A stretch of 64,000 bases of DNA, from positions 14,978 through 78,977 of the forward strand of contig CAXNGS010000005.1 of NCBI GenBank assembly GCA_964202055.1. The letters are read 5' to 3'. This DNA comes from Bdellovibrionota bacterium. Lineage in GTDB: Bacteria > Bdellovibrionota > UBA2428. Every line of letters begins with the position of its first letter. The first letter of the stretch is position 1. Position numbers and translations under genes: made by a program. Positions 8,465 to 64,000 of the stretch are shown here, in pieces. Below the pieces are notes generated by a model that worked only from the letters and a program-made list of their open reading frames with translations, was not told the origin of the DNA and did not search any database.

Positions 8465-8588
8465 AAAGATATTGCCTCCGTTACTTTAAATTCTAGAGGA
8501 CTTCTCCAAAAAGCCCATGGGCGCAGCAACAAAAAATTGCCTCTGATAGCCGGGTGACGAATTCGCCCTTTTTCGACACTCTTTTATA

Positions 8589-11462
8589 ATGACGCCGTGC
8601 GGCAATATAGGTATACACTCCCCCAGATTGCTTTTTATGATGTCTTTAAAAAAACACACCAAAACCCTGATCCTAGCGTCCGCCATAAGTATTGGATATT
8701 TAAATACTAATACTGCATTTTCGGCCTCCAATCAGACCCAGGCTAGTGAGTCCTGCGAATCACCTCTTCGGCGTCCCCTGATGAGCCTCGGCCGGCAAAT
8801 TTTAAAGACCCGCTATCAAACCACAGTTCGGGGCTCGGATGTGTTTAATGGCCCTCAACAAGGCGTCTTGGTTTTAGCCAATCACCCTGGATTCATCGAT
8901 CCGGCGATCATGATCACTCAACTGGATCAGTTTATAAAAGTCCGGCCACTGATGAAAGAAAACGTGGCACGCCATCCAGTCACCAAAGCAGTCGCGCGCA
9001 TCACTCGCGCAGTTTTAATTCCCGACATGAGCGAAGAAGGTCGCGGCGGAGTTGCCGCCGCACAAGCCGCCGTGCAATCGGTGATCGATGCGTTGGCTCG
9101 TGGTGAAAATATTATTTTGTATCCGTCCGGCACTATCTATCGCCAGCAGAATGAAAAAATCGGAGCCAATTCAGCGGTCGACCGAATTTTGAAAGCCCTG
9201 CCCAAAACCAAAGTTGTGTTGGCTCGAAGCCGCGGAATTTGGGGAAGTTCTTTTAGCTTCGGGCTGACTGGCGAAAGCCCAGTTAAAAAACTTTTAACTC
9301 GCACGATTCCCAGGGCGATCATGTCGATCGTGAGTGGTGGAATTTTCTTTGCGCCCAAGCGTAAAGTGGAAATCGATTTTGTCGAAGCCAAAGACATGCC
9401 CCGCGATCAAGGAAGATTAGCGATCAATCGATACTTAGAAAAGTTTTACAACGAAGACGCTCCACCGGCCATGAAAGTCCCTTATTTTTGGTGGCAGGGA
9501 TCGACCCCAACCGTAGTCGAAAACAAAAAATCCACCGCGAGCAACGACCGCAGCGCGCTCTTGAGCAGCGTTGATCCAGAAACTCGCCGCGCGATTTACG
9601 AATTCATCACCCAAAAATTAGGCGATGCAAAAATCAGCGACGAAGATTTACTGGAAGCCAAACTAGGAATGGACAGCCTTTCCCGAGTGGAAATGTTGGT
9701 CTGGGTTGGTGAAACTTTTGGCCGCGAAGTTCCCGAGGCTTCAGAATTAAAAACCGTTGGCGATGTTTTGCTTGCGGCCGAAGGAAAGATTGCCTCGACC
9801 GGAACTGTCGAGCTGAAGCCAGTTAAAGCAAATTGGTTTTACAACGAATCACCGGACGCCAAACTCAGCGTCCCCGAAGGCGAAACCATTCCCGAGGTCT
9901 TCTTAGCCCAAGCCCGTCGCCACCCCAATCGCGCGGCAGTCGCCGATCAAATCAGCGGAGTCTTGACCTATCGTGATGTTGTCGGGCGAATCATGCTCTT
10001 AAAACCATTGATCGAAGAATTAGCCGGTGACAGCGACCGAATTGGCATCATGATGCCGGCATCGGTGAGCGCGACCGTGCTCACTCTTGCCGCCCAATTT
10101 GCAGGCAAAACTCCGGTGATGATCAACTTCACGGCCGGAAAAAACGGCGTGACCGAAGCCATTAAAACTTCGGGCATCACCAAAATCATCACCTCGCAAA
10201 CCTTGCTTGAAAAACTTAAAACTTCCGGACTCGAAATGACCGAACTCGACAAATATTTTTTCAAGCTCGAAGGGCTCAAAGACAGCAAATCTTTCAAACT
10301 TAAATTCATTCGCACCAAGATCGACAGCTATGGCCCCTGGGGATTACTCGACAGCTGGGCTCGTAAAAATAAAAAAGACGAAGCGGTAATTTTATTCACC
10401 AGTGGTTCGGAAAAAAATCCTAAGGGCGTGCCGCTCACTCACCAAAATCAGCTGGCCAACATTCGAGCGCTAGCTTGGATAGTGCCCTTCACTCAACAAG
10501 ATCGATTGATGGGAGTTTTACCGTCCTTCCATTCCTTTGGGTTAACCGTCACTCAAATGATGTCGATTTGTTTGGGGCTGCCCACCGTTTACTTTCCGAG
10601 CCCACTTGATGGCGAAAAAATTTCCGCCCACATCAATGCCTATGAGGCGACTTTGGTTCCAGGCACTCCGACATTTTTAGAAGGCATCGCGCGAGCCGCG
10701 GCTCGTGATCCGAAATTATTAGGCACCGTTCGAATGTGGATCACCGGCGCCGCCAAATGCGGCAACAATGTTTACCGCGCACTCGGAATGGTTTGCCCTC
10801 GATCCACCGTGATCGAAGGCTACGGCATCACCGAAACTAGCCCCGCTATTTCTATCAATCCTCCCAACAAACCCAAGCCCGGAACTCTTGGCCAAGTTTT
10901 GCCCGGCGTGAAACACGTAATCGTGGATCCAGAAACCATGGGCAAACGAGTTGATCGTGGCAGCCCAGGGCTTTTGCTGGTTCAAGGCAAAAACATCTTC
11001 AGCGGATATCTTGGGAGCTCTAGTGAAAATCCCTTCGTCGAGTTCGAGGGATCGCGCTGGTACAACACCGGAGACATCGTCAAAGAAGATGCTGATGGAT
11101 ATTTAGTGATGAGCGATCGCATGAGCCGATTCATCAAAGTGGGAGGCGAAAAAATTTCGCTGACCGCCATTGAATCGCCGCTGGTTGAAATGATGCAAAG
11201 TGAAATGGCCAGCTCGGAAGACACTGGACCCGCCGTTGCGGTTGAAGGCTTGGATGAAACCGAAGAAGGTAAAGCCGCAGTCAAGGTTGCCTTCAGCACC
11301 AAACCGCTCACGGTTGCTAAAGCCAATGAGGCGCTGAGGACCGCTGGTTTGAACGGGCTGTTCTTCATCACCGAAGTGGTTCAAGTTAAAGAGCTGCCAA
11401 TGCTCGGCAGCGGAAAAGTAGATTACAAAGCCTTGCGTCGTTCGCTTAAAGAACGGCGCTAA
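8589..11462 (+). CDS. Tri-domain lysophospholipid acyltransferase / acyl carrier domain / acyl-ACP synthetase (Aas-like)
   Basis: Three regions are recognisable: the PlsC-type acyltransferase box NHPGFIDP (H-x4-D), the phosphopantetheine site LGMDSLSRVEML, and the AMP-binding motifs LFTSGSEKNPKGVPLTHQN and YNTGDIVKEDADGYL..GRMSRFIKVGGEKIS. The true start may be the Met at 8637 (MMSLKK). Confidence 0.8.
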   Translation: MTPCGNIGIHSPRLLFMMSLKKHTKTLILASAISIGYLNTNTAFSASNQTQASESCESPLRRPLMSLGRQILKTRYQTTVRGSDVFNGPQQGVLVLANHPGFIDPAIMITQLDQFIKVRPLMKENVARHPVTKAVARITRAVLIPDMSEEGRGGVAAAQAAVQSVIDALARGENIILYPSGTIYRQQNEKIGANSAVDRILKALPKTKVVLARSRGIWGSSFSFGLTGESPVKKLLTRTIPRAIMSIVSGGIFFAPKRKVEIDFVEAKDMPRDQGRLAINRYLEKFYNEDAPPAMKVPYFWWQGSTPTVVENKKSTASNDRSALLSSVDPETRRAIYEFITQKLGDAKISDEDLLEAKLGMDSLSRVEMLVWVGETFGREVPEASELKTVGDVLLAAEGKIASTGTVELKPVKANWFYNESPDAKLSVPEGETIPEVFLAQARRHPNRAAVADQISGVLTYRDVVGRIMLLKPLIEELAGDSDRIGIMMPASVSATVLTLAAQFAGKTPVMINFTAGKNGVTEAIKTSGITKIITSQTLLEKLKTSGLEMTELDKYFFKLEGLKDSKSFKLKFIRTKIDSYGPWGLLDSWARKNKKDEAVILFTSGSEKNPKGVPLTHQNQLANIRALAWIVPFTQQDRLMGVLPSFHSFGLTVTQMMSICLGLPTVYFPSPLDGEKISAHINAYEATLVPGTPTFLEGIARAAARDPKLLGTVRMWITGAAKCGNNVYRALGMVCPRSTVIEGYGITETSPAISINPPNKPKPGTLGQVLPGVKHVIVDPETMGKRVDRGSPGLLLVQGKNIFSGYLGSSSENPFVEFEGSRWYNTGDIVKEDADGYLVMSDRMSRFIKVGGEKISLTAIESPLVEMMQSEMASSEDTGPAVAVEGLDETEEGKAAVKVAFSTKPLTVAKANEALRTAGLNGLFFITEVVQVKELPMLGSGKVDYKALRRSLKERR

Positions 11463-55919: not shown

Positions 55920-55996
<77 letters not shown>

Positions 55997-56078
55997 ATTT
56001 TTTCAAACGAGCACTACGCAAACGAGTACGTTTGCTACGGCTCGGTAAACCATCCAGATTTAAAACAAAAAAACTTGG

Positions 56079-56495
56079 TTATTTTATTTCTACCGCTGGA
56101 TATGACTCTAAGTATTCTTCTCCTAAAGCTCCGCAGTAAATCACTGTGCGTTTTTCGAAATCAACTTCGTAACTAACAATGCCTGCTTTCCAAGTGGCGA
56201 GCAGGAATTCGGGGAAGGTGCTGTTGCCGGCCTGATCTGTTCGCAAGGCCACAATCAAAGCGTCTTTATTGAATTTAGGAACTTCGACCATACCGGAAAC
56301 AAGCGGGGTTCCCTGCTGAACAACCGTGCCCTCTTTGCAAATAAAAAGGCTCTGACACCCAGGTAAAGACCAAATATTTTTAATCACTCCGGCCCGGCGC
56401 AGTGATTCTGCAAGATAGGGGAATCCACCAACCTTCGGTCGATCCTTCATGGCTTTTTGCTGAGCATCCATTAAATTTTGAACTGCATGACTCAT
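56079..56495 (-). CDS. Hypothetical protein (possibly DUF1398-like, phage-associated family)
   Basis: This is a 138-aa soluble ORF; FPEFLLATWKAGIVSYEVDFEKRTVIYCGALGEEY resembles the pattern of that family. The identity is uncertain. Confidence 0.45.
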   Translation of the reverse strand: MSHAVQNLMDAQQKAMKDRPKVGGFPYLAESLRRAGVIKNIWSLPGCQSLFICKEGTVVQQGTPLVSGMVEVPKFNKDALIVALRTDQAGNSTFPEFLLATWKAGIVSYEVDFEKRTVIYCGALGEEYLESYPAVEIK

Positions 56496-56595
56496 AAGAT
56501 TTTATAAACACGCCGCTCTTTTGCTGTCTATCGAGACCCTTTCCAACAATTGTTTTCTTATGCACTTCGAGCTAAACCCAAAACCAAGATTATTT

Positions 56596-56844
56596 ATGAA
56601 TACATTTTTTATTGAAGCCATTGGCTGGTTATCCACTGTTTTATTTTTAGTTTCGATTTTATTGCCTCAGCGAGTTCATCTTCATGCGCTGGGGATTTTG
56701 ACCTCGATCACGACCGGATATTATGCGTACGAGCATGGAGCAACCGCGATTTGGGTTAAGTGGTTAATCGCTTTATTTTTTCACGCCTATATGTGGCATC
56801 GCTACACATTTAAAGAACCGGCAAAGAAAGCTCCTGCTATTTAG
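56596..56844 (+). CDS. Small inner-membrane protein, hypothetical
   Basis: Two TM helices read FIEAIGWLSTVLFLVSILL and IWVKWLIALFFHAYMW. The supplied ORF starts at 56521 with an alternative start. Confidence 0.4.
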   Translation: MNTFFIEAIGWLSTVLFLVSILLPQRVHLHALGILTSITTGYYAYEHGATAIWVKWLIALFFHAYMWHRYTFKEPAKKAPAI

Positions 56845-56867
56845 CAATTCTTTTGAAAATTTAATCT

Positions 56868-57716
56868 TTAATGATGAATCGCGCGTTTGGTGACGCCGCC
56901 TTCGACGCTGGCAAGCGGATGAATCGTGATAAAGGCTCGTTCATCTAATTCATTAGCGATTTTTTTCACTTCACCAACCTCGAGACGCGTGACGACACAA
57001 TAAAGAATTTCTTTGTCTTCGCCGTGCATACTTCCAAAACCTCGAAAAACCGTCACGCCTCGGCCCAAATGTCCGGTGATTTTTTCGCGAATCAACGCGC
57101 TGGCCGAAGAGATAATGGTCACTGCGGTGTATTCTTCAAAACCATAAATCACGAAATTAAGCGTACGAGCCGCGGCAACGTAAGTCAGAATGGAATACAA
57201 AGCTTGTTCCACTCCCAATAATGAAAGTGCCGCCAAAAACAAAACAACGTTGAAGCCAAGAATGACATCACCAACCCTAAGCACGTGAACTCGCTTGCTG
57301 ATTAAAAGAGCGGCGATTTCTGTTCCATCTAAAACGGCTCCGCCACGAATCGCCAAACCAATCCCCGCCCCTATGAAAAGTCCGCCGAAAACGGCCGTTA
57401 GAACTAGGTCGTGCGTCACGTCCGGGAAAGGCACAAAAGCCAACACGACGGCCAAGCCTGAAATCGCTAGCGTGCTGCGGATTGCAAACGATCGACCCAA
57501 GTGACGATAGGCAATCACAATAAATGGGGCATTCACCAACGGCAGCCATATCGACAGAGGTAGCGTGGTGACCTTGGCCAAGAGCATGGAAATCCCAGTG
57601 ACCCCGCCGTCGATGAAGTTACTGGAAAAGAGGAAACCCTTCAGGCCCATTCCGGCTGCAAAAACTCCCAACAAGATTAGCGCAGCGTTTTTAATTTCTT
57701 GAATCATTTTGTCCAC
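56868..57716 (-). CDS. YitT-family membrane protein (DUF161 + DUF2179)
   Basis: It is multi-TM with a C-terminal DUF2179-like soluble domain (GGVTVFRGFGSMHGEDKEILYCVVTRLEVGEVKKI). Confidence 0.65.
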   Translation of the reverse strand: MDKMIQEIKNAALILLGVFAAGMGLKGFLFSSNFIDGGVTGISMLLAKVTTLPLSIWLPLVNAPFIVIAYRHLGRSFAIRSTLAISGLAVVLAFVPFPDVTHDLVLTAVFGGLFIGAGIGLAIRGGAVLDGTEIAALLISKRVHVLRVGDVILGFNVVLFLAALSLLGVEQALYSILTYVAAARTLNFVIYGFEEYTAVTIISSASALIREKITGHLGRGVTVFRGFGSMHGEDKEILYCVVTRLEVGEVKKIANELDERAFITIHPLASVEGGVTKRAIHH

Positions 57717-57767
57717 CCAAAGATCCTATCACGAGACAAAACGAATCATGAAAATCAGTCCTCAATA

Positions 57768-58112
57768 TCAGTCGTCAATGGATCGGTCGCGAATGCTCAC
57801 ATGCATTTCTAAATCTTTAACGGATGGGTGGCGACGAACCGCCGCCTCCAATTCTTGCCGTTCTTCTAGTGTCTCAACGCTTCCGTGGATTTTTACAAAA
57901 CCTTGAGTCATTCGCACGCGTAACCATCGCATATCCAATCGCACACTTTCTTCAACTTGAACAATCAGGTCGGCTGCCGCCTTTATTTCACTGAGCGTCG
58001 GGCGATCAATTTCTTCCGAATAAGTTCCATCTTCGTCATCATTAGATGAACGATTAGAAGAGTGATTAAAGTTTGCGACCATAGGTCCCAGCCTTATAGC
58101 TTCTTTCGTCAA
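57768..58112 (-). CDS. BON-domain protein
   Basis: VRMTQGFVKIHGSVETLEERQELEAAVRRHPSVKDLEMHVSIRD fits the BON pattern. Confidence 0.55.
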   Translation of the reverse strand: MTKEAIRLGPMVANFNHSSNRSSNDDEDGTYSEEIDRPTLSEIKAAADLIVQVEESVRLDMRWLRVRMTQGFVKIHGSVETLEERQELEAAVRRHPSVKDLEMHVSIRDRSIDD

Positions 58113-58692
58113 CCCGGGTAAGGGCTTTCGCCATTTTAGGCGTGATCAATGACGTGTGCGAAATCTCACAAAGATGTTCGGCAATGAACCACACATCATC
58201 GTCTCGAGTCATCCAATGTTGTCGATCAAATCGCTTCAAATTTACTGGACGCGAAAAATTTCGGAGGGTGCGCTCCCGGCGGTTATTAAAATAATCATTG
58301 AAATAACTAAGGGCCAATTCGCGCAAACTTCGGTGAATCGGCGAACGAAAACGACAACCTGGATAATTTGAAGCAGCCAAAGCCCCCCAAGCTCCGTTTT
58401 CTTGATAAACCGCGATGACATGATCGGTGTCGTTCACCGCCTCTAAGTCCAAAAGCAGAGGCGGATAGCCATTGACCCTCAAAGCCGCCGCCGCAAAAAT
58501 AGCGCCTTCCAAACAATGCGCCGTTTTATGTCGCATCACCAATCTGGGAGACCAAGCAGTGTTGGCAATGTGATAAGGAATTTTGTCCAAAAAATTTTGA
58601 ATTTTAGCGGGCGTTGAGAGTGAGCGTAAAAAACGCAGCTCCTTGCGATCTAATTCAACAGAATTTTCTTTAGCAGCCGCATTTTTTCCCAT
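58066..58692 (-). CDS. Transglutaminase-like / papain-like cysteine-protease-fold protein
   Basis: HKTAHCLEGAIFAAAALRVNGYPP ... NDTDHVIAVYQENGAW suggests a Cys-His(-Asp) core. Confidence 0.45.
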   Translation of the reverse strand: MGKNAAAKENSVELDRKELRFLRSLSTPAKIQNFLDKIPYHIANTAWSPRLVMRHKTAHCLEGAIFAAAALRVNGYPPLLLDLEAVNDTDHVIAVYQENGAWGALAASNYPGCRFRSPIHRSLRELALSYFNDYFNNRRERTLRNFSRPVNLKRFDRQHWMTRDDDVWFIAEHLCEISHTSLITPKMAKALTRVDERSYKAGTYGRKL

Positions 58693-58830
58693 TCAAACAG
58701 AATAGCTTGAGCCCTCATTGGGCTCAAGCGCAGACGCTGCGTTGCGCCGGTTTCCCGGGCACCTTTGTGTGCACAAATCTTGGCAGGGTGGCGCGCTAGG
58801 CAAGATGAAAATTTATAGTAAAAGTATTCT

Positions 58831-59688
58831 ATGAATCGAATCCTAAAAGCGATTAGCTTTTCAGCCCTCCTCGTTCTTAATTCTTGCGCCTATCAATATC
58901 GAATTAAAGACGTAGATAAAGCCCTTGATCGAAACGAAAAGCAGCTCGGAAAAATGCAAAAGCAAATCGGAGCTGATTTGAAGAACAAATCTAAAATCTT
59001 GGACTGCTTTAGTGAAGCAGATGGTGCCAGCAATTCTTCACAAGAAATCACGGATAAAATTAATGACCTGCAAGCCAAGCAACAAGAAGTTAGCAAAGCC
59101 ACCGCCCAACTAGAGGGCGGCATGAAATTAGTTCGCGCCAAAATGAAGGGCAAAAAGACCATCAACAGCCAAGAGTCAGACTACCCGGAATTCAAAAAAT
59201 CACTCGACGACTTAGAAGGCCTCAGTAAAAACCTGCAGAAAGCGCTAGATGGCTACAGCAAAAGCTCATCGTCTTTTCAAGCGGAAGCCAAACGCCGCAA
59301 AATTCTCATATTAGACTTTAACACTTTGGCGGCTGACTTAGCCAAAGCCACCTCAAGCACCGAAGCCTCGATAGTTGCCGCAAAAAAAGAGATCGCCTCT
59401 GCTAAAAAAATCATCGGAAAATCAGAAATCAAAGACAAAGAAAAAAGAATGGTCGCTCTCGAGAAAATGAACGGACTTCTTGGGGAAGCTACGGTTGAAG
59501 CCACCGCGGCGAAATCTGCTGCCACAAATTTAAACAAAGAGTTTCCGCAAAAAGGCTTGGTTTGTCTGGCGCCTCACCACTCGGCATATTCCTATATCAA
59601 TGACCTTAATGGACATAGCCAGCGGATTTCAAAAATTGGCCAGGCGCTCAATAAATTATCCAAGGAAGTTTCCGCCAAAGGAAAATGA
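58831..59688 (+). CDS. Coiled-coil lipoprotein, hypothetical
   Basis: The lipobox reads LVLNSCAY, and the protein is Lys/Glu/Ala-rich with heptad character throughout. Confidence 0.65.
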   Translation: MNRILKAISFSALLVLNSCAYQYRIKDVDKALDRNEKQLGKMQKQIGADLKNKSKILDCFSEADGASNSSQEITDKINDLQAKQQEVSKATAQLEGGMKLVRAKMKGKKTINSQESDYPEFKKSLDDLEGLSKNLQKALDGYSKSSSSFQAEAKRRKILILDFNTLAADLAKATSSTEASIVAAKKEIASAKKIIGKSEIKDKEKRMVALEKMNGLLGEATVEATAAKSAATNLNKEFPQKGLVCLAPHHSAYSYINDLNGHSQRISKIGQALNKLSKEVSAKGK

Positions 59689-59699
59689 AGTAGAAAAAA

Positions 59700-61268
59700 A
59701 TGAAGCTAGACGAATATTTTTTGCTGGCGGCCTTTTCTTATCTTCGTGCGGATTCCGCACTCTCTAAAAATTTACAATCCACCCTTTCGTCGTCGCCCTA
59801 TGAATTTATAAAGCCAAGGCTGCCTGGAGAGTTTTCCGTAGGGTCAACCGAGCCTTCGGGCCGCGCCATTGGCTTCTTTGAGTGGGCCGACAGCCTGCGC
59901 CGCGAAGGAATTTTATCGATGAGGGTCTCGCGCATCGGCACCACTCTTCCGGAAAATCTTGAGTTTACGGCGGCTACCCTTTTTGGATCATCGCAAGAAA
60001 TTTTACGAGTGAGCACAAAAATTACCAATCATGATTATTTATTATCACCCTCGGCAAGTCCCCGATTTAAAGCCACTGCTGAAAACTTCGTCTCAATTGT
60101 GGACCAACAAGCAGATCCCGCAGAACTGTGGGCTTATATCAGCGCTCGAATCAAAGAGTTTTTAACTTTGAACGGAGATCTCTTCAATCCAAGCAAAACC
60201 GGCAAGCAACTGATGCTCGAGCTACCCAACAATTCGCTATGGGATCCGCTTGGAGACTCCTTATTTCGAGAGCTACAAGTTTTTGCATTATGTGAAAACT
60301 TTGAAATAGTGATTCCTAAAAACTTATCATCCCTGGTGAGTGCCTTTACTTTTGACGATGAATTCGATGATCCACAGCTCAAAGATTACGTTTACTTTTA
60401 CAAAGAGAAAGACGTGACGATCGAAATGTTCATTGAAATGATCGAGGCCCAAACAGAGAGCCCAGAAGTCCGACGTCGCCTGTCCCAACTATTAATCGAA
60501 AATGAAAAATCAATTTCCTTCGATTTAAATTCGCCGGAATGGAAAATTTTTCTCAAGAAAGCCAGCCCCGAACAATTTGAAACTTTGGTGGGGTGGGCAT
60601 GCCGGGCCGTTTCAAACGTTTGTTCGGAGTTTAAAAGCATGCCGATCATTCCCATCGGTCAGGAATCCTTTTGGGGACCTAGCCCCCTAGACCTTAAACG
60701 AATTAGGGCTCGAGAATCCCTTCAAAAAAAGGGCCTGCAACTGACTCCCTTTGAAGAGCCCTGGCAGTTTTACGAATTTCATCCGATGGATCAGCCCGCA
60801 AAATTTAGCGAGGCTCATGGCTTTCAAGACGATGGAGAGGGCGTAATCGAAGACTACCGCCATTCGCTCGGCCAAATCATTCCCTTTTCGAAGGAAATTA
60901 ATTCACCCTTTACCGAAGCCTTTCGATTGGCAGATTTTATTTTGCAACATCCGAAAACCATCCTTTCCGGCGGGAATTCCGCCACTCTTTTTTTAAATAG
61001 AAATGGTTTTAGCGACCTGGCTGTAGAAATATTTTTGGAAAAAACCGAATTGATTCAAAACCTAAGCTCTATGCGTTTTGAGGAAACCGAAATTATTCAA
61101 TTTCTTTCGCTAGAAGTTTCTGATGTTTTTGGGGGAATGGGTTCGTGGAATGATCAATATTTCCAGGATATTTCCCTACAAGAAAAATTCAACTCGATTT
61201 CTTCTGCTTTAATTTCAAGTCGCAACCTAGTTTTCCAATCACTACTTAATTACAACAGTGGATCCTGA
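59700..61268 (+). CDS. Hypothetical 522-aa cytoplasmic protein, no recognisable domain
   Basis: The long ORF starts 12 nt after the lipoprotein gene. Confidence 0.55.
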   Translation: MKLDEYFLLAAFSYLRADSALSKNLQSTLSSSPYEFIKPRLPGEFSVGSTEPSGRAIGFFEWADSLRREGILSMRVSRIGTTLPENLEFTAATLFGSSQEILRVSTKITNHDYLLSPSASPRFKATAENFVSIVDQQADPAELWAYISARIKEFLTLNGDLFNPSKTGKQLMLELPNNSLWDPLGDSLFRELQVFALCENFEIVIPKNLSSLVSAFTFDDEFDDPQLKDYVYFYKEKDVTIEMFIEMIEAQTESPEVRRRLSQLLIENEKSISFDLNSPEWKIFLKKASPEQFETLVGWACRAVSNVCSEFKSMPIIPIGQESFWGPSPLDLKRIRARESLQKKGLQLTPFEEPWQFYEFHPMDQPAKFSEAHGFQDDGEGVIEDYRHSLGQIIPFSKEINSPFTEAFRLADFILQHPKTILSGGNSATLFLNRNGFSDLAVEIFLEKTELIQNLSSMRFEETEIIQFLSLEVSDVFGGMGSWNDQYFQDISLQEKFNSISSALISSRNLVFQSLLNYNSGS

Positions 61269-61382
61269 GCTCTAACGCAGCACGCCGCCCGTGCTAGGTT
61301 TTCTACAGTCACCATTTTGCCATCGATGGCGCGTTCGCCCATGTGCCGCTAACATACTTAAAGGAAACTAAATTATTTTTAT

Positions 61383-62552
61383 ATGAGATTAAACAAACGC
61401 GGAATTGGATTAGCCGAAATCTTGGTGGCGGTGGCCCTTCTCGGGATGGCCAGCGTGCTGCTCATGAATATGCTCAATGGTTACTTAGACTCAAAAACCA
61501 AAGCCGAGTTCAATCACATTACTAAAAATTTCGGGCTGAATTTGTCCCGGGCCCTGGGGAATCCGGCCACTTGCGGAGCGACCTTAACCGCCGCCAACAT
61601 GTCTTCACTGGACTTAAGAACCTTCCCCAGCATCAATAAAATTATCGACGTTACCGGAGCCACTATTTATCAAGTCGGAAATACTTATTCCGAAGGAACC
61701 CTTAAACTTTTGGGGATTCGAATTCAAAAATTCACACCCGGCGCTGGGCCTGATCGAATAGCCGAAGCCACCGTTTACTTCGATATCGAGTATTTAAAAG
61801 ACACTCCGGTCAGCCCCGTGATGACTTGGGCCTATCATGCAAACGTGCGAACTCCTGACCCTCTGGTCGTAACTCCTGATGCGGAATTTTTCATTGAACA
61901 AGTTGGGGCGGTTGGTAGCGAAAAGGCCATTTGTTCTTCGGGCGTGACCGATCGCGGATACACTCAAACCAATGGCGACACCATGATCGGCCCACTGGCC
62001 ATCGATTTACCGGCAAGCTATGGCCCAATCGTTGCAGGCGACCCTTGCTTTATTTTTCCCATCCCTCCCACAGGCTGCATCGGAACCAACCCATGGTTTG
62101 GCGCGGTTGTCGCTCCGCTACTTCCCGATGAAAGCGATCAAACAGTCCCGCCAACTATTCCTTGGAAGAAAAGGTGGGGGCTTTTGGTAAACTTTGGTTA
62201 CGTAGAAACCAACAAACTTTATCTAGATTCTGATGAGCGACTGAAACAAAATATTCAGAAAATTAAAGCCCCCCTTGAGCTACTGAATCATTTAGAAGGC
62301 AGATCATTTTCATGGAAGGATTCCAATCTTTCCGACTGGGGCTTCATTGCTCAAGATGTCAAAAAATTTGCGCCCGAGCTTGTCCACGCCGGAGAAAAAA
62401 CTGGCTATTTATCAGTGCAATATTTGAGTTTATTGGCCCACCAAGTAGAAGCTCTTAAACTTTTAAAGGGCGAACAAGATGATCGAGCCCTCGAACTTAG
62501 CCAATTGAAAGAGCGGATGTCGAAGCTTCGGGCACAAATGCTCCTAAATTGA
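61383..62552 (+). CDS. Type IV pilin-like N-terminus fused to a tail-fibre-like domain with a C-terminal peptidase S74 intramolecular-chaperone domain
   Basis: The prepilin motif reads MRLNKRG|IGLAEILVAVALLGMASVLL (Gly -1, Glu +5). The tail-fibre motif reads NGDTMIGPL. The C-terminal domain (62211-62552) reads LYLDS|DERLKQNIQKI...WGFIAQDV...LSVQYLSLLAHQV with the S-D-x-R-x-K-x-N-I autocleavage signature. Confidence 0.7.
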   Translation: MRLNKRGIGLAEILVAVALLGMASVLLMNMLNGYLDSKTKAEFNHITKNFGLNLSRALGNPATCGATLTAANMSSLDLRTFPSINKIIDVTGATIYQVGNTYSEGTLKLLGIRIQKFTPGAGPDRIAEATVYFDIEYLKDTPVSPVMTWAYHANVRTPDPLVVTPDAEFFIEQVGAVGSEKAICSSGVTDRGYTQTNGDTMIGPLAIDLPASYGPIVAGDPCFIFPIPPTGCIGTNPWFGAVVAPLLPDESDQTVPPTIPWKKRWGLLVNFGYVETNKLYLDSDERLKQNIQKIKAPLELLNHLEGRSFSWKDSNLSDWGFIAQDVKKFAPELVHAGEKTGYLSVQYLSLLAHQVEALKLLKGEQDDRALELSQLKERMSKLRAQMLLN

Positions 62553-62904
62553 TCAGATACCATTCCCCAACTTTTTCATCGAAATTAAGATTGAAAAGCG
62601 CAGATTGGTCCAAATGCAGCGGCGCCCACTGGTGACAGACTGGATGCGCAACTGAGAAAATTTTAGCGTGTTTTGCCCCTTGGTGCTTATAAACAAAAGC
62701 TATTTCTTGATTCGGCCTGGGATTTGAAGGCAGGCGAACAATGCCCCCGGGTGCCACTGTTATTTGGTGATCAAAGGGGTTGAGTCTTTGTGCCCCACTC
62801 AATTCCGAATTTTTTTTCCGGCCATTTCTTAAAAAGCCCAGAGCCCTCGCGGCCGAAAACCAGATAGCGACAAAAATTAGTGACATGAAACTTCGTCGAT
62901 TCAT
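62497..62904 (-). CDS. Small secreted hypothetical protein (uncertain)
   Basis: It has a signal-peptide-like N-terminus and a His-rich middle. It overlaps the 3' end of the fibre gene by 56 nt on the opposite strand. Confidence 0.3.
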   Translation of the reverse strand: MNRRSFMSLIFVAIWFSAARALGFLRNGRKKNSELSGAQRLNPFDHQITVAPGGIVRLPSNPRPNQEIAFVYKHQGAKHAKIFSVAHPVCHQWAPLHLDQSALFNLNFDEKVGEWYLINLGAFVPEASTSALSIG

Positions 62905-62980
62905 TGAGCTTAGTATATCTCCGAAATCTTTTTACCAAAGTTTAAATATGTAAATATTCTGCCTATAATCACAGTTGAAT

Positions 62981-64000
62981 ATGAACCGATTATATTTAAT
63001 CTCAAAGACACGTCGCTCCGTCGCTGGTTTCTCCATTGCGATGGTTTTAATTTATATGTCGATTGCTTCCGGCATCGGCTATGCGCTCAGCGTCTACATG
63101 GGCAACGTTAGCAAGACCTACAAAGCATCGGAGGTAGAACAAGTCATTTCGCTTTACACCATGAACTTGCAGCGAATGCTAACCCATGCCGAAGCCTGCA
63201 CTCGAACCTTTAACCCCGGCGGAACTCATACTCCCGGAACTTACAATGGCACCACTTATACACTGAATGCAACCGTACCTGCGGATCGACTAGTCTTGGC
63301 TCCTGGAGAGCGGCAACTTCGTTATATTTTAAACACCACAGTTCCAGGAGTCTGTGGAGCCCTTCCCTGTGAAATCAGATCTGAAGCGCTCAATGTCGGC
63401 AGCGGGACTATTGATCAATCAAAGCAAGTTCGAGTTAAAGAGATTCGCATTCGAGACCTGCAAACTCCACGCCCTGCAGGATGTGATCCTTCACGCGGAG
63501 GCGACCTGTGCTCTGAGGTTAAGGTTCATATTTATTTTGAAAAACTTAATGCGCTTTCTCTCACCAAAGTCATTAAACGATCCTTTCAACTTCAAGTCCG
63601 AGTCAACGCGAATTTAAACACCCAATATTGTTATTCCACAATTGATCGCGATTATGCCGATCAAGATTTGTTCGTCAACAAAGCCGGAGACACCATGACC
63701 GGTGAACTCCAAATTAAACTTGATCCAGTTCCCGCCACCCCAACTCGTGCGCTTTATGTAAAAGATGGCTACATTCAAACGAATTTATTTTATATTGATT
63801 CTGATCGTCGGCTAAAGAAAAACATCCATGCGATTTCGGAGCCCTTTAAAATTCTAGATGGAATTCAAGGGCGCGAATTTAATTGGCGCGATTATGGCGA
63901 CAAAGATTATGGTTTCATCGCCCAAGAAGTTGAAAAAAATGAACCACAACTGGTGATTACTGATCCTAAAACGAACTTCAAAGCTATGCGTTACGCCAGC
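62981..64000 (+). CDS. Second tail-fibre-like protein with S74 intramolecular-chaperone domain, 3' end outside window; pseudopilin-like N-terminus lacking Glu+5
   Basis: The frame is open from the ATG at 62981 to the window end; it is absent from the ORF track because no stop is reached. The N-terminus reads RRSVAG|FSIAMVLIYMSIASG, the tail-fibre motif reads KAGDTMTGEL, and the chaperone signature reads LFYIDS|DRRLKKNIHAI...YGFIAQEV. Confidence 0.65.
   Translation, partial: MNRLYLISKTRRSVAGFSIAMVLIYMSIASGIGYALSVYMGNVSKTYKASEVEQVISLYTMNLQRMLTHAEACTRTFNPGGTHTPGTYNGTTYTLNATVPADRLVLAPGERQLRYILNTTVPGVCGALPCEIRSEALNVGSGTIDQSKQVRVKEIRIRDLQTPRPAGCDPSRGGDLCSEVKVHIYFEKLNALSLTKVIKRSFQLQVRVNANLNTQYCYSTIDRDYADQDLFVNKAGDTMTGELQIKLDPVPATPTRALYVKDGYIQTNLFYIDSDRRLKKNIHAISEPFKILDGIQGREFNWRDYGDKDYGFIAQEVEKNEPQLVITDPKTNFKAMRYAS

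Follow-up and report, generated by a model that had tools for sequence, protein, structure and literature searches.

What is the role of a protein that begins like a type IV pilin and ends like a phage tail fibre? The question is raised by two neighbouring genes at the end of a 64,000-nucleotide stretch of DNA from a Bdellovibrionota bacterium (assembly GCA_964202055.1, contig CAXNGS010000005.1, positions 14,978 to 78,977 of the forward strand), which we call the window. The genes, named g1 and g2 here, both encode a prepilin-type leader and a C-terminal Peptidase_S74 domain, and g2 runs off the window end. An earlier note on this DNA had described them as a cassette-like pair of fibres with conserved ends and different, presumably receptor-binding, central regions. 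We find that g2 is the member without Glu at mature position +5 (Glu+5) of a conserved two-paralog set, in the same orientation as a conserved downstream gene. The explanation that we favour, and to which we give an even chance of being correct, is that g2 encodes a modular type IV pilin-like protein matured by its S74 chaperone, and that the resulting trimer primes or caps a type IV filament.

Completion and architecture of g2

The earlier note had reported g2 as an open reading frame (ORF) that leaves the window without a stop, and the continuation bears this out. Contig L001 matches window positions 55971-64000 with 0 mismatches over 8030 nucleotides (nt) and therefore comes from the same genome. 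On this contig, g2 extends for 45 codons beyond the window end to a stop at window-equivalent position 64138. The full product has 385 amino acids (aa), and the database protein P0001 is 100% identical to it over the 340 window codons. The extension past position 64000 brings no frameshift or early stop at odds with an S74 domain. The motifs that the note had named, namely the leader G↓FSIAM, KAGDTMTGEL (aa 234-243, nt 63680-63709), LFYID↓SDRRLKKNI and YGFIAQEV, were all found where it had placed them (arrows mark predicted cleavage sites). The features of g2 and of the genes around it are listed in Table 1.

Table 1. Features of the pilin-S74 locus. Positions refer to the window unless contig L001 is named; +5 counts from the predicted mature N-terminus.
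Feature	Position	Strand	Remarks and basis
Upstream paralog g1, 389 aa	61383..62552	+	Leader MRLNKRG↓IGLAE with Glu+5; GDTMIG at aa 198; SDERLK at aa 283; S74 domain
Small antisense gene, 135 aa, twin-arginine (RRSFMSL) signal	62497..62904	-	Last 56 nt overlap the 3' end of g1
Divergent intergenic region, 76 bp	62905..62980		Between the starts of the small antisense ORF and g2
g2, partial ORF, codons 1-340 of 385	62981..64000	+	ATG at 62981; open up to the window end
g2 leader peptide, basic, aa 1-16 (MNRLYLISKTRRSVAG)	62981..63028	+	Ends with Gly-1; sequence and class III motif scan
g2 hydrophobic alpha1-N and amphipathic alpha1-C helix, aa 17-66	63029..63178	+	Met at mature +5; helix 19-66 of the AlphaFold2 (AF2) model, family profile
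g2 variable Cys-rich head, aa 67-220	63179..63640	+	Predicted short helix, then beta strands
g2 GDTMTG motif, aa 236-241, start of the stalk (aa ~221-273)	63686..63703	+	Sequence
g2 SDRRLK, Ser274/Lys279 dyad of the S74 autocleavage site	63800..63817	+	Ser274 at nt 63800-63802
g2 Peptidase_S74 intramolecular chaperone domain	63800..64000	+	Cut by the window end; Pfam PF13884
Downstream gene, 214 aa, signal-less	L001 8171-8815 (window-equivalent 64141-64785)	+	Same orientation as g2; starts 2 nt after g2
Eight-gene cluster	L001 10307-18052	-	Five radical S-adenosylmethionine (SAM) proteins, at least three with SPASM-type matches

The N-terminus is of the type IV pilin kind

The g2 product starts with a short, basic leader that ends in Gly at -1 and is followed by ~20 hydrophobic residues (MNRLYLISKTRRSVAG↓FSIAMVLIYMSIASGIGYALSVYM), and a class III motif scan of it is positive. 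Prepilin peptidase is predicted to cut it before Phe17 (G16↓F17-S-I-A-M; ...SVAG↓FSIAM). Leaders of g2 orthologs read G↓FSIAM, G↓FSIGE, G↓LSLAM and G↓MTSIV at this site, and the g1 product gives a sub-threshold match to the Pfam family N_methyl (E 0.03).

To place these leaders in a family, we used a sample of 29 genome loci anchored on the conserved gene downstream of g2, and all S74 ORFs of the 24 non-redundant loci (44 ORFs) were inspected. A prepilin motif, with Gly or Ala at -1, hydrophobic residues from +1 to +4 and a hydrophobic run, is present in 42 of the 44 ORFs. The two ORFs without it are one that is cut by a contig end and one that encodes a 529-aa protein with a Sec-type signal. 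Glu+5 is found in 31 of the 42 motif carriers, and the other 11 have Met, Gln, Val or Leu there. These residues follow a pattern: exactly one paralog lacks Glu+5 in 11 of the 12 loci that hold at least two pilin-S74 genes, and Glu+5 is present in all single-gene loci. Pfam N_methyl matches 29 of the 42 N-terminal regions, with a best E of 5.9e-9. When the N-terminal profile of the family was searched against the PDB, 18 sequences were matched. Type IV pilins or pseudopilins account for 17 of them, including geopilin, PilE1, PAK pilin, MshA, TcpA, GspG and CofA; the best match is geopilin (E 1.2e-5), over the leader and alpha1. Judged by its sequences, the family N-terminus is of the type IV pilin kind, and this family evidence settles what g2 alone leaves weak. 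The pilin-type leader proposed in the earlier note is thus upheld by the N_methyl matches of the relatives and by a profile that finds almost only type IV pilins in the PDB.

The note had also compared the g2 leader with GspK-type minor pseudopilins. The GspK and PilX minor pilins lack Glu+5, and the pilin-S74 sets resemble such tip subunits in that exactly one co-encoded member lacks it. This part of the comparison stands, but membership in the GspK family does not: GspK/T2SSK profiles give no match to the g2 product (Pfam at E<=1; NCBIfam at E<=0.1), and g2 has no alpha-domain insertion; the likeness is a functional analogy only.

The 529-aa S74 protein mentioned above (L009 6458-8044) has a Sec-type signal in place of the pilin leader and adjoins the conserved downstream gene. 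The pilin head has apparently been replaced in this protein.

An S74 domain, a short stalk and a variable head

Peptidase_S74 (Pfam PF13884) is matched at aa 274-325 of the g2 product with 45 bits (E 1.3e-11) and in the g1 product with 51 bits; the curated Pfam cutoff is 22 bits. As the earlier note had proposed, g2 is indeed a second paralog of the upstream S74 protein. Residues S274, D275, L278 and K279 (g2 numbering) are invariant in the family alignment, and so are D237, M239 and G241 of the GDTMTG motif. The SDRRLK sequence of g2 fits the S74 consensus SDxxxK (PMC10769870). Tail-fibre families of PHROGs match only the C-terminal ~120-160 aa of the g1 and g2 products (aa ~223-384 in g2).

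The AF2 model of P0001 contains a 48-residue helix (19-66), a short helix, strands between residues 86 and 219, an unmodelled segment (222-279), S74 elements and a long C-terminal helix (aa 343-383), which is coded past the window end. The predicted order of secondary structure elements is the pattern expected of a pilin-S74 fusion. The central region, which had been presumed to be the receptor-binding part of a fibre, is better read as a pilin globular head, with helix 19-66 followed by beta strands, and not as the tip of a fibre. The head is the least conserved part of the protein (29-47% identity between g2 and its orthologs). It contains six Cys residues (73, 125, 130, 168, 177 and 217); Cys73 is invariant and Cys217 is conserved in at least 90% of the 42 family members. 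Six Cys residues, two of them conserved throughout the family, fit an exported, disulfide-bonded domain.

The stalks of the two window paralogs differ. The distance from GDTM(T/I)G to the cleavage Ser is 85 aa in g1 and 38 aa in g2, a difference of 47 residues, and the identity over the 40 residues before the cleavage Ser is 28%. Stalks of paralogs from the same genome are mostly dissimilar (2-57% identity). Since both stalk length and stalk sequence differ between paralogs of one genome, homotrimers are likelier than mixed trimers. We considered a heterotrimer of g1 and g2 on one stalk and disfavour it, given the 47-residue difference and the dissimilarity of most same-genome pairs. In locus L003, the two paralogs (8546-9544 and 9887-11071) have stalks of equal length that are 57% identical over the 40 residues before the cleavage Ser. 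This likeness could reflect gene conversion or, in this locus, mixed trimers.

Two old paralogs kept as a set

A BLASTP alignment of the g1 and g2 products is limited to their C-terminal 91 aa, with 43% identity. In a ten-sequence family alignment compared end to end, the two products are 17% identical in the leader and alpha1-N, 20% in alpha1-C, 19% in the head, 41% in the stalk and 46% in the S74 domain. The earlier note had stated that the pair shares conserved N- and C-terminal modules. This is correct for the C-terminal stalk and S74 domain, but the N-termini share a motif class, the prepilin-type leader, and not a sequence.

Near full-length orthologs of the g1 type are found in other genera with 29-47% identity, and orthologs of the g2 type with 35-57%. 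Since g1 and g2 are matched by separate orthologs outside their own genus, the duplication is old. The longest direct DNA repeat linking g1 and g2 is 22 nt, and the longest inverted one is 28 nt with 71% complementarity. The precomputed Pfam matches of the neighbouring genes (YitT/DUF2179, S74 and Radical_SAM only) include no recombinase or reverse transcriptase. The diversification cassette suggested before is therefore not borne out, as the paralogs have separate orthologs, no linking repeats and no switching enzyme in the Pfam lists of their neighbours. We conclude that g1 and g2 are old paralogs that have been retained together and not copies within a switching cassette.

A conserved downstream gene of a second, predicted auto-chaperone type

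The gene that follows g2 encodes a 214-aa protein with no signal peptide and no family match in Pfam, PHROGs or NCBIfam. It is 64-75% identical across loci whose pilin-S74 proteins share 35-57% identity. A genome scan with this gene yielded the 29 loci of our sample, from Bacteriovoracaceae, Pseudobdellovibrio, Bdellovibrionaceae, Halobacteriovorax, Peredibacter and Bacteriovorax; two loci carry other labels, Flavobacteriaceae in one case and just 'bacterium' in the other. One of the loci, L022, lies in the cultured Peredibacter sp. HCB2-198 (NZ_CP174607, around 1,279,438-1,299,872). The module at these loci has 1-3 pilin-S74 genes beside the conserved downstream gene and is usually joined by a radical SAM/SPASM cluster; it is found almost only in Bdellovibrionota. 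The locus from the bin labelled Flavobacteriaceae (L031, contig CAXPDR010000038.1) has a pilin-S74 gene together with the downstream gene and the radical SAM cluster. Mis-binning of a Bdellovibrionota contig is the probable reason for the label, unless the locus was acquired horizontally.

The model of the downstream protein has a predicted local distance difference test (pLDDT) score of 81 and resembles the C-terminal auto-chaperone of phi29 gp12 (3gqh, probability 1.0) and phage decoration or fibre-base proteins. The fold also matches 23 viral models at E<=1e-3; 'preneck appendage' and 'tail fiber' proteins are among these. The profile of the downstream family finds only gp12 residues 672-742 in the PDB, and this match is weak (E 0.39). 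The weak alignment sets W-S-D-F-A-E of gp12 opposite V-W-N-D-V-A-D of the family, in which Asn78-Asp79 is invariant; we take the W-S-D stretch of gp12 to be its Ser691-Asp692 self-cleavage site. The modelled fold suggests that the downstream protein is a phi29-gp12-type (peptidase G2-type) auto-chaperone. In IMG/VR contigs (L047 2112-8429, L040 2271-6530 and L041 5475-8444), the C-terminal ~150 residues of the downstream protein end ORFs of up to 2106 aa. This position at the end of long viral ORFs is as expected of a fibre auto-chaperone module.

A proposed trimeric subunit of a type IV filament

In the explanation that we favour, the g2 product would enter the inner membrane like any pilin, and prepilin peptidase would cut it after Gly16. 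In the periplasm, three S74 domains would trimerise, template the stalk and cut themselves off at Ser274 via the Ser274/Lys279 dyad. The outcome would be a stable homotrimer to which each ~257-aa subunit contributes one pilin head and one alpha1 helix. This trimer may prime or cap a type IV filament of the predator, which could be a type IVa pilus or the pseudopilus of type II secretion, and the stub bared by S74 cleavage would be its contact surface. We infer the trimerisation, cleavage and pilus location of the g2 product by homology. S74 trimerisation and self-cleavage have been described for Bdellovibrio Bd3182 and for phage K1F and T5 proteins (PMC10769870).

Several points weigh against this explanation. 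The g2 product has Met instead of Glu+5, and it has no match to Pfam N_methyl (PF07963 / IPR012902) in searches at E<=1 or E<=0.1. Confidence in the AF2 model of P0001 is low (mean pLDDT 56). A fold search with this model gave no pilin and one weak match, the endosialidase chaperone 3gw6, which we read as no evidence either way on the pilin head. The stalk is only ~50 residues per chain, so that 'fibre' overstates it. No gene of type IV pilus or type II secretion machinery is present in the window or in the examined flanks of related loci. A pilus-tip model also does not account for the conserved neighbours, namely the signal-less auto-chaperone protein and the cytoplasmic radical SAM enzymes.

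Some of these points favour the main rival, a membrane-anchored trimer outside any pilus, in which the N-terminal helix would be only a signal-anchor or a cleaved signal and the trimer, matured by S74, would remain at the inner membrane or in the periplasm and work with the products of the neighbouring genes. We regard it as fairly unlikely. The g2 leader without Glu+5 or an N_methyl match is in line with it, as are the lack of pilus machinery genes nearby and the tight linkage to the signal-less auto-chaperone and radical SAM enzymes instead of pilus genes. However, the pilin-S74 family has kept Gly-1, an aromatic or hydrophobic residue at +1 and, in the 31 relatives counted above, Glu+5, which is hard to explain without selection for prepilin-peptidase recognition and filament assembly. 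The single Glu+5-less paralog per set also mirrors minor pilin sets.

The radical SAM cluster raises another explanation, in which a modification pathway would involve the pilin-S74 proteins, the downstream protein, or the two together, either as substrates that the five adjacent enzymes cross-link or modify in another way or as scaffolds for these enzymes. This pathway is compatible with the favoured reading, and we consider it rather improbable. The cluster lies beside the pilin-S74 module in most of the 29 loci. Distant pilin-S74 homologs (27-28% identity; L053 and L054) have the same neighbours, including the cluster, and in L009 and L015 the gene immediately after the downstream gene encodes a radical SAM protein. 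The enzymes resemble peptide or protein maturases (anSME, DynA, DarE and cyclophane-forming maturases). Against this, the enzymes are cytoplasmic and pilin heads fold once they have been exported; neither a precursor-peptide gene nor a recognition element was found, and the linkage may mean a shared regulon only.

A pair of MAT-type fibres with central modules swapped or diversified for prey specificity, which would be closest to the cassette of the earlier note, is already largely refuted, and we give it very little credence. The source organism belongs among the Bdellovibrio-like predators, in which S74 fibres are known adhesins (PMC10769870), and the head is the part that varies most among orthologs. 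Against this, the MAT-defining N-domain is absent, the protein is 385 aa long, g1 and g2 have separate orthologs in other genera, no direct or inverted repeats join the two genes, and their low identity in the head and N-terminus shows that they are not recent copies. Equally improbable is a prophage or tailocin remnant of decaying tail-fibre genes without a cellular role: the C-terminal chaperones of both types derive from phages, very long ORFs of viral contigs end in the C-terminal domain of the downstream protein and a tRNA-Met gene, after which the GC content drops slightly, lies upstream, but there is no other phage gene in the neighbourhood, gene order is kept over several Bdellovibrionota families with 26-57% protein identity and intact ORFs, and pilin leaders are not phage features.

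Relation to known systems

Pilins with S74 domains have been noticed before. In a survey of modular pilins (Raynaud et al. 2021, PMC8179133), the combination IPR012902-IPR030392 is the sixth commonest type, with 29 proteins, and its S74 domain is read as 'peptidase activity'. These proteins have the same order as the window family, with a prepilin leader and alpha1 followed by a C-terminal S74 domain. The rule of the survey would miss the g2 product, which has no N_methyl match and no Glu+5, and the paired sets with and without Glu+5 and their conserved neighbours are not described there. Literature searches for pilin with S74 or intramolecular chaperone, and for Bdellovibrio with minor pilin or tail fibre, found no functional study of pilin-S74 proteins.

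Modular pilins have been proposed to sit at pilus tips (PMC8179133). The closest parallels in mode of action are CofB of the enterotoxigenic Escherichia coli pilus CFA/III and TcpB of TCP, the toxin-coregulated pilus of Vibrio cholerae, both of them trimeric minor pilins that initiate type IVb pili and cap them (CofB and TcpB, PMC6048534, PMC5207764); CofB forms a trimeric initiator complex (PMC6048534). In both, a pilin module is followed by C-terminal beta domains and a homotrimer sits at the filament tip, and we propose the same mode of action for g2. No sequence similarity to CofB or TcpB was detected, and the family N-terminal profile did not match either of them. The g2 leader is of the short type IVa or type II secretion kind, unlike those of CofB and TcpB, and trimerisation of g2 would use a self-cleaving phage-type chaperone that is then discarded.

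The C-terminal part of g2 has its likeness in S74 fibres such as phage K1F endosialidase, the phage T5 L-shaped tail fibre and Bd3182, with the same SDxxxK dyad, GDTMTG-type stalk and C-terminal helix (PMC10769870). The MAT fibres of Bdellovibrio come from the same host clade as g2. They start with a Sec signal and a conserved beta-rich N-domain of ~130 aa, their beta-helical shafts are long, and the crystallised constructs of Bd3182 and Bd2133 end at residues 922 and 1,031, respectively (PMC10769870). Compared with this published description, the g2 product differs in its prepilin leader and 48-residue helix, its total of 385 aa and its stalk of ~50 residues. With the MAT N-domain and the long shaft absent, the g2 product is not a Bdellovibrio MAT fibre. 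Among predators, a conceptual parallel is found in the Kil Tad pilus of Myxococcus, in which several minor-pilin sets form interchangeable 'Tip' complexes with variable domains proposed for prey contact (PMC12075869). This system belongs to another pilus class (Tad/Flp), and its proteins are of other families and have no S74 domain.

Three aspects of the window family are new. First, the pilin-S74 set is nearly confined to predatory bacteria, and each set has one member without Glu+5. Second, the pilin-S74 genes are in a fixed partnership with a second phage auto-chaperone type and a radical SAM cluster. Third, S74 is read as a trimerisation device for a pilin and not as 'peptidase activity', which offers a working role, that of a trimerisation chaperone, for the uncharacterised modular pilins that combine pilin and S74. 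That the second auto-chaperone type and five radical SAM enzymes are conserved companions of these genes points to a larger module, so far undescribed and nearly confined to predatory bacteria.

We also put forward a wider idea, which we think unlikely: a hybrid organelle in which a type IV filament would be tipped by a phage-derived, S74-matured pilin trimer, separate paralog sets, each with one member without Glu+5, would provide different tips, and the auto-chaperone and the radical SAM/SPASM enzymes would serve as dedicated tip maturation or cross-linking factors. If true, this organelle would be a missing link between the essential pili of the predator and its phage-like adhesins. Type IV pili of Bdellovibrio serve prey invasion (PMC3818213), and phage-like S74 fibres have recently been shown to recognise prey. 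A pilin end and an S74-trimer end in one protein would be a concrete, testable physical link between the two.

Surrounding genes

Between the module and the radical SAM cluster lies a gene for a 456-aa protein with choice-of-anchor D domain matches (L001 8847-10217, - strand). In L036, a homolog of this protein adjoins the small ORF with a twin-arginine translocation (Tat) signal. Immediately upstream of the gene pair, the window encodes a 285-aa coiled-coil lipoprotein (58831-59688, + strand) that is not kept in other loci and a 522-aa protein without a family match (59700-61268, + strand), whose only homolog among the other loci is in L036 (56% identical). A 208-aa protein is encoded at 58066-58692 (- strand), and its 85% identical homolog directly follows the module in the related contig L002; this different placement indicates that the neighbourhood has been rearranged between close relatives.

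The rest of the window holds housekeeping genes (Lon, ClpXP, trigger factor, IleRS, FtsK, Rho, RF1 and DnaG). A tRNA-Met gene at 55920-55996 lies 5.4 kb upstream of the gene pair, and the GC content falls slightly past it, from 0.48-0.50 to 0.44-0.46 (56000-64000). We considered a genomic island on this basis, and with only a slight GC drop after the tRNA gene it is not convincing. In the spacer before g2, a promoter-like TTTAAA-17-TATAAT is present on the + strand at 62941-62969 (L001 6971-6999). It is a consensus match only, and the number of such sites in the region as a whole is not above chance (7 versus 5.1 expected).

The small antisense ORF between g1 and g2 had been considered either a fibre-associated factor or noise. 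It is real, as homologs are found at the same position in L003, L004/L007 and L008, where they are convergent with the g1-type gene and divergent from the g2-type gene across a short spacer; this divergent arrangement is seen in four related genomes. R3, R4 and F6 are invariant in this small Tat-signal family, which has kept the RRxF motif and a C-terminal DWY block. More distant homologs have an unconserved tail in place of the part that overlaps g1. The small protein has no family in Pfam, PHROGs or NCBIfam. An exhaustive hidden Markov model (HMM) search with it found 8 representatives among 1.84 billion proteins, seven of which are 116-135 aa long; the one long match, P0147, is a repetitive Ig-domain protein and probably spurious. 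The product is a real, rare and probably Tat-exported protein. The tie of this gene to the pilin-S74 genes is positional only, and in one close relative the small ORF lies elsewhere in the neighbourhood and the pilin-S74 genes are contiguous.

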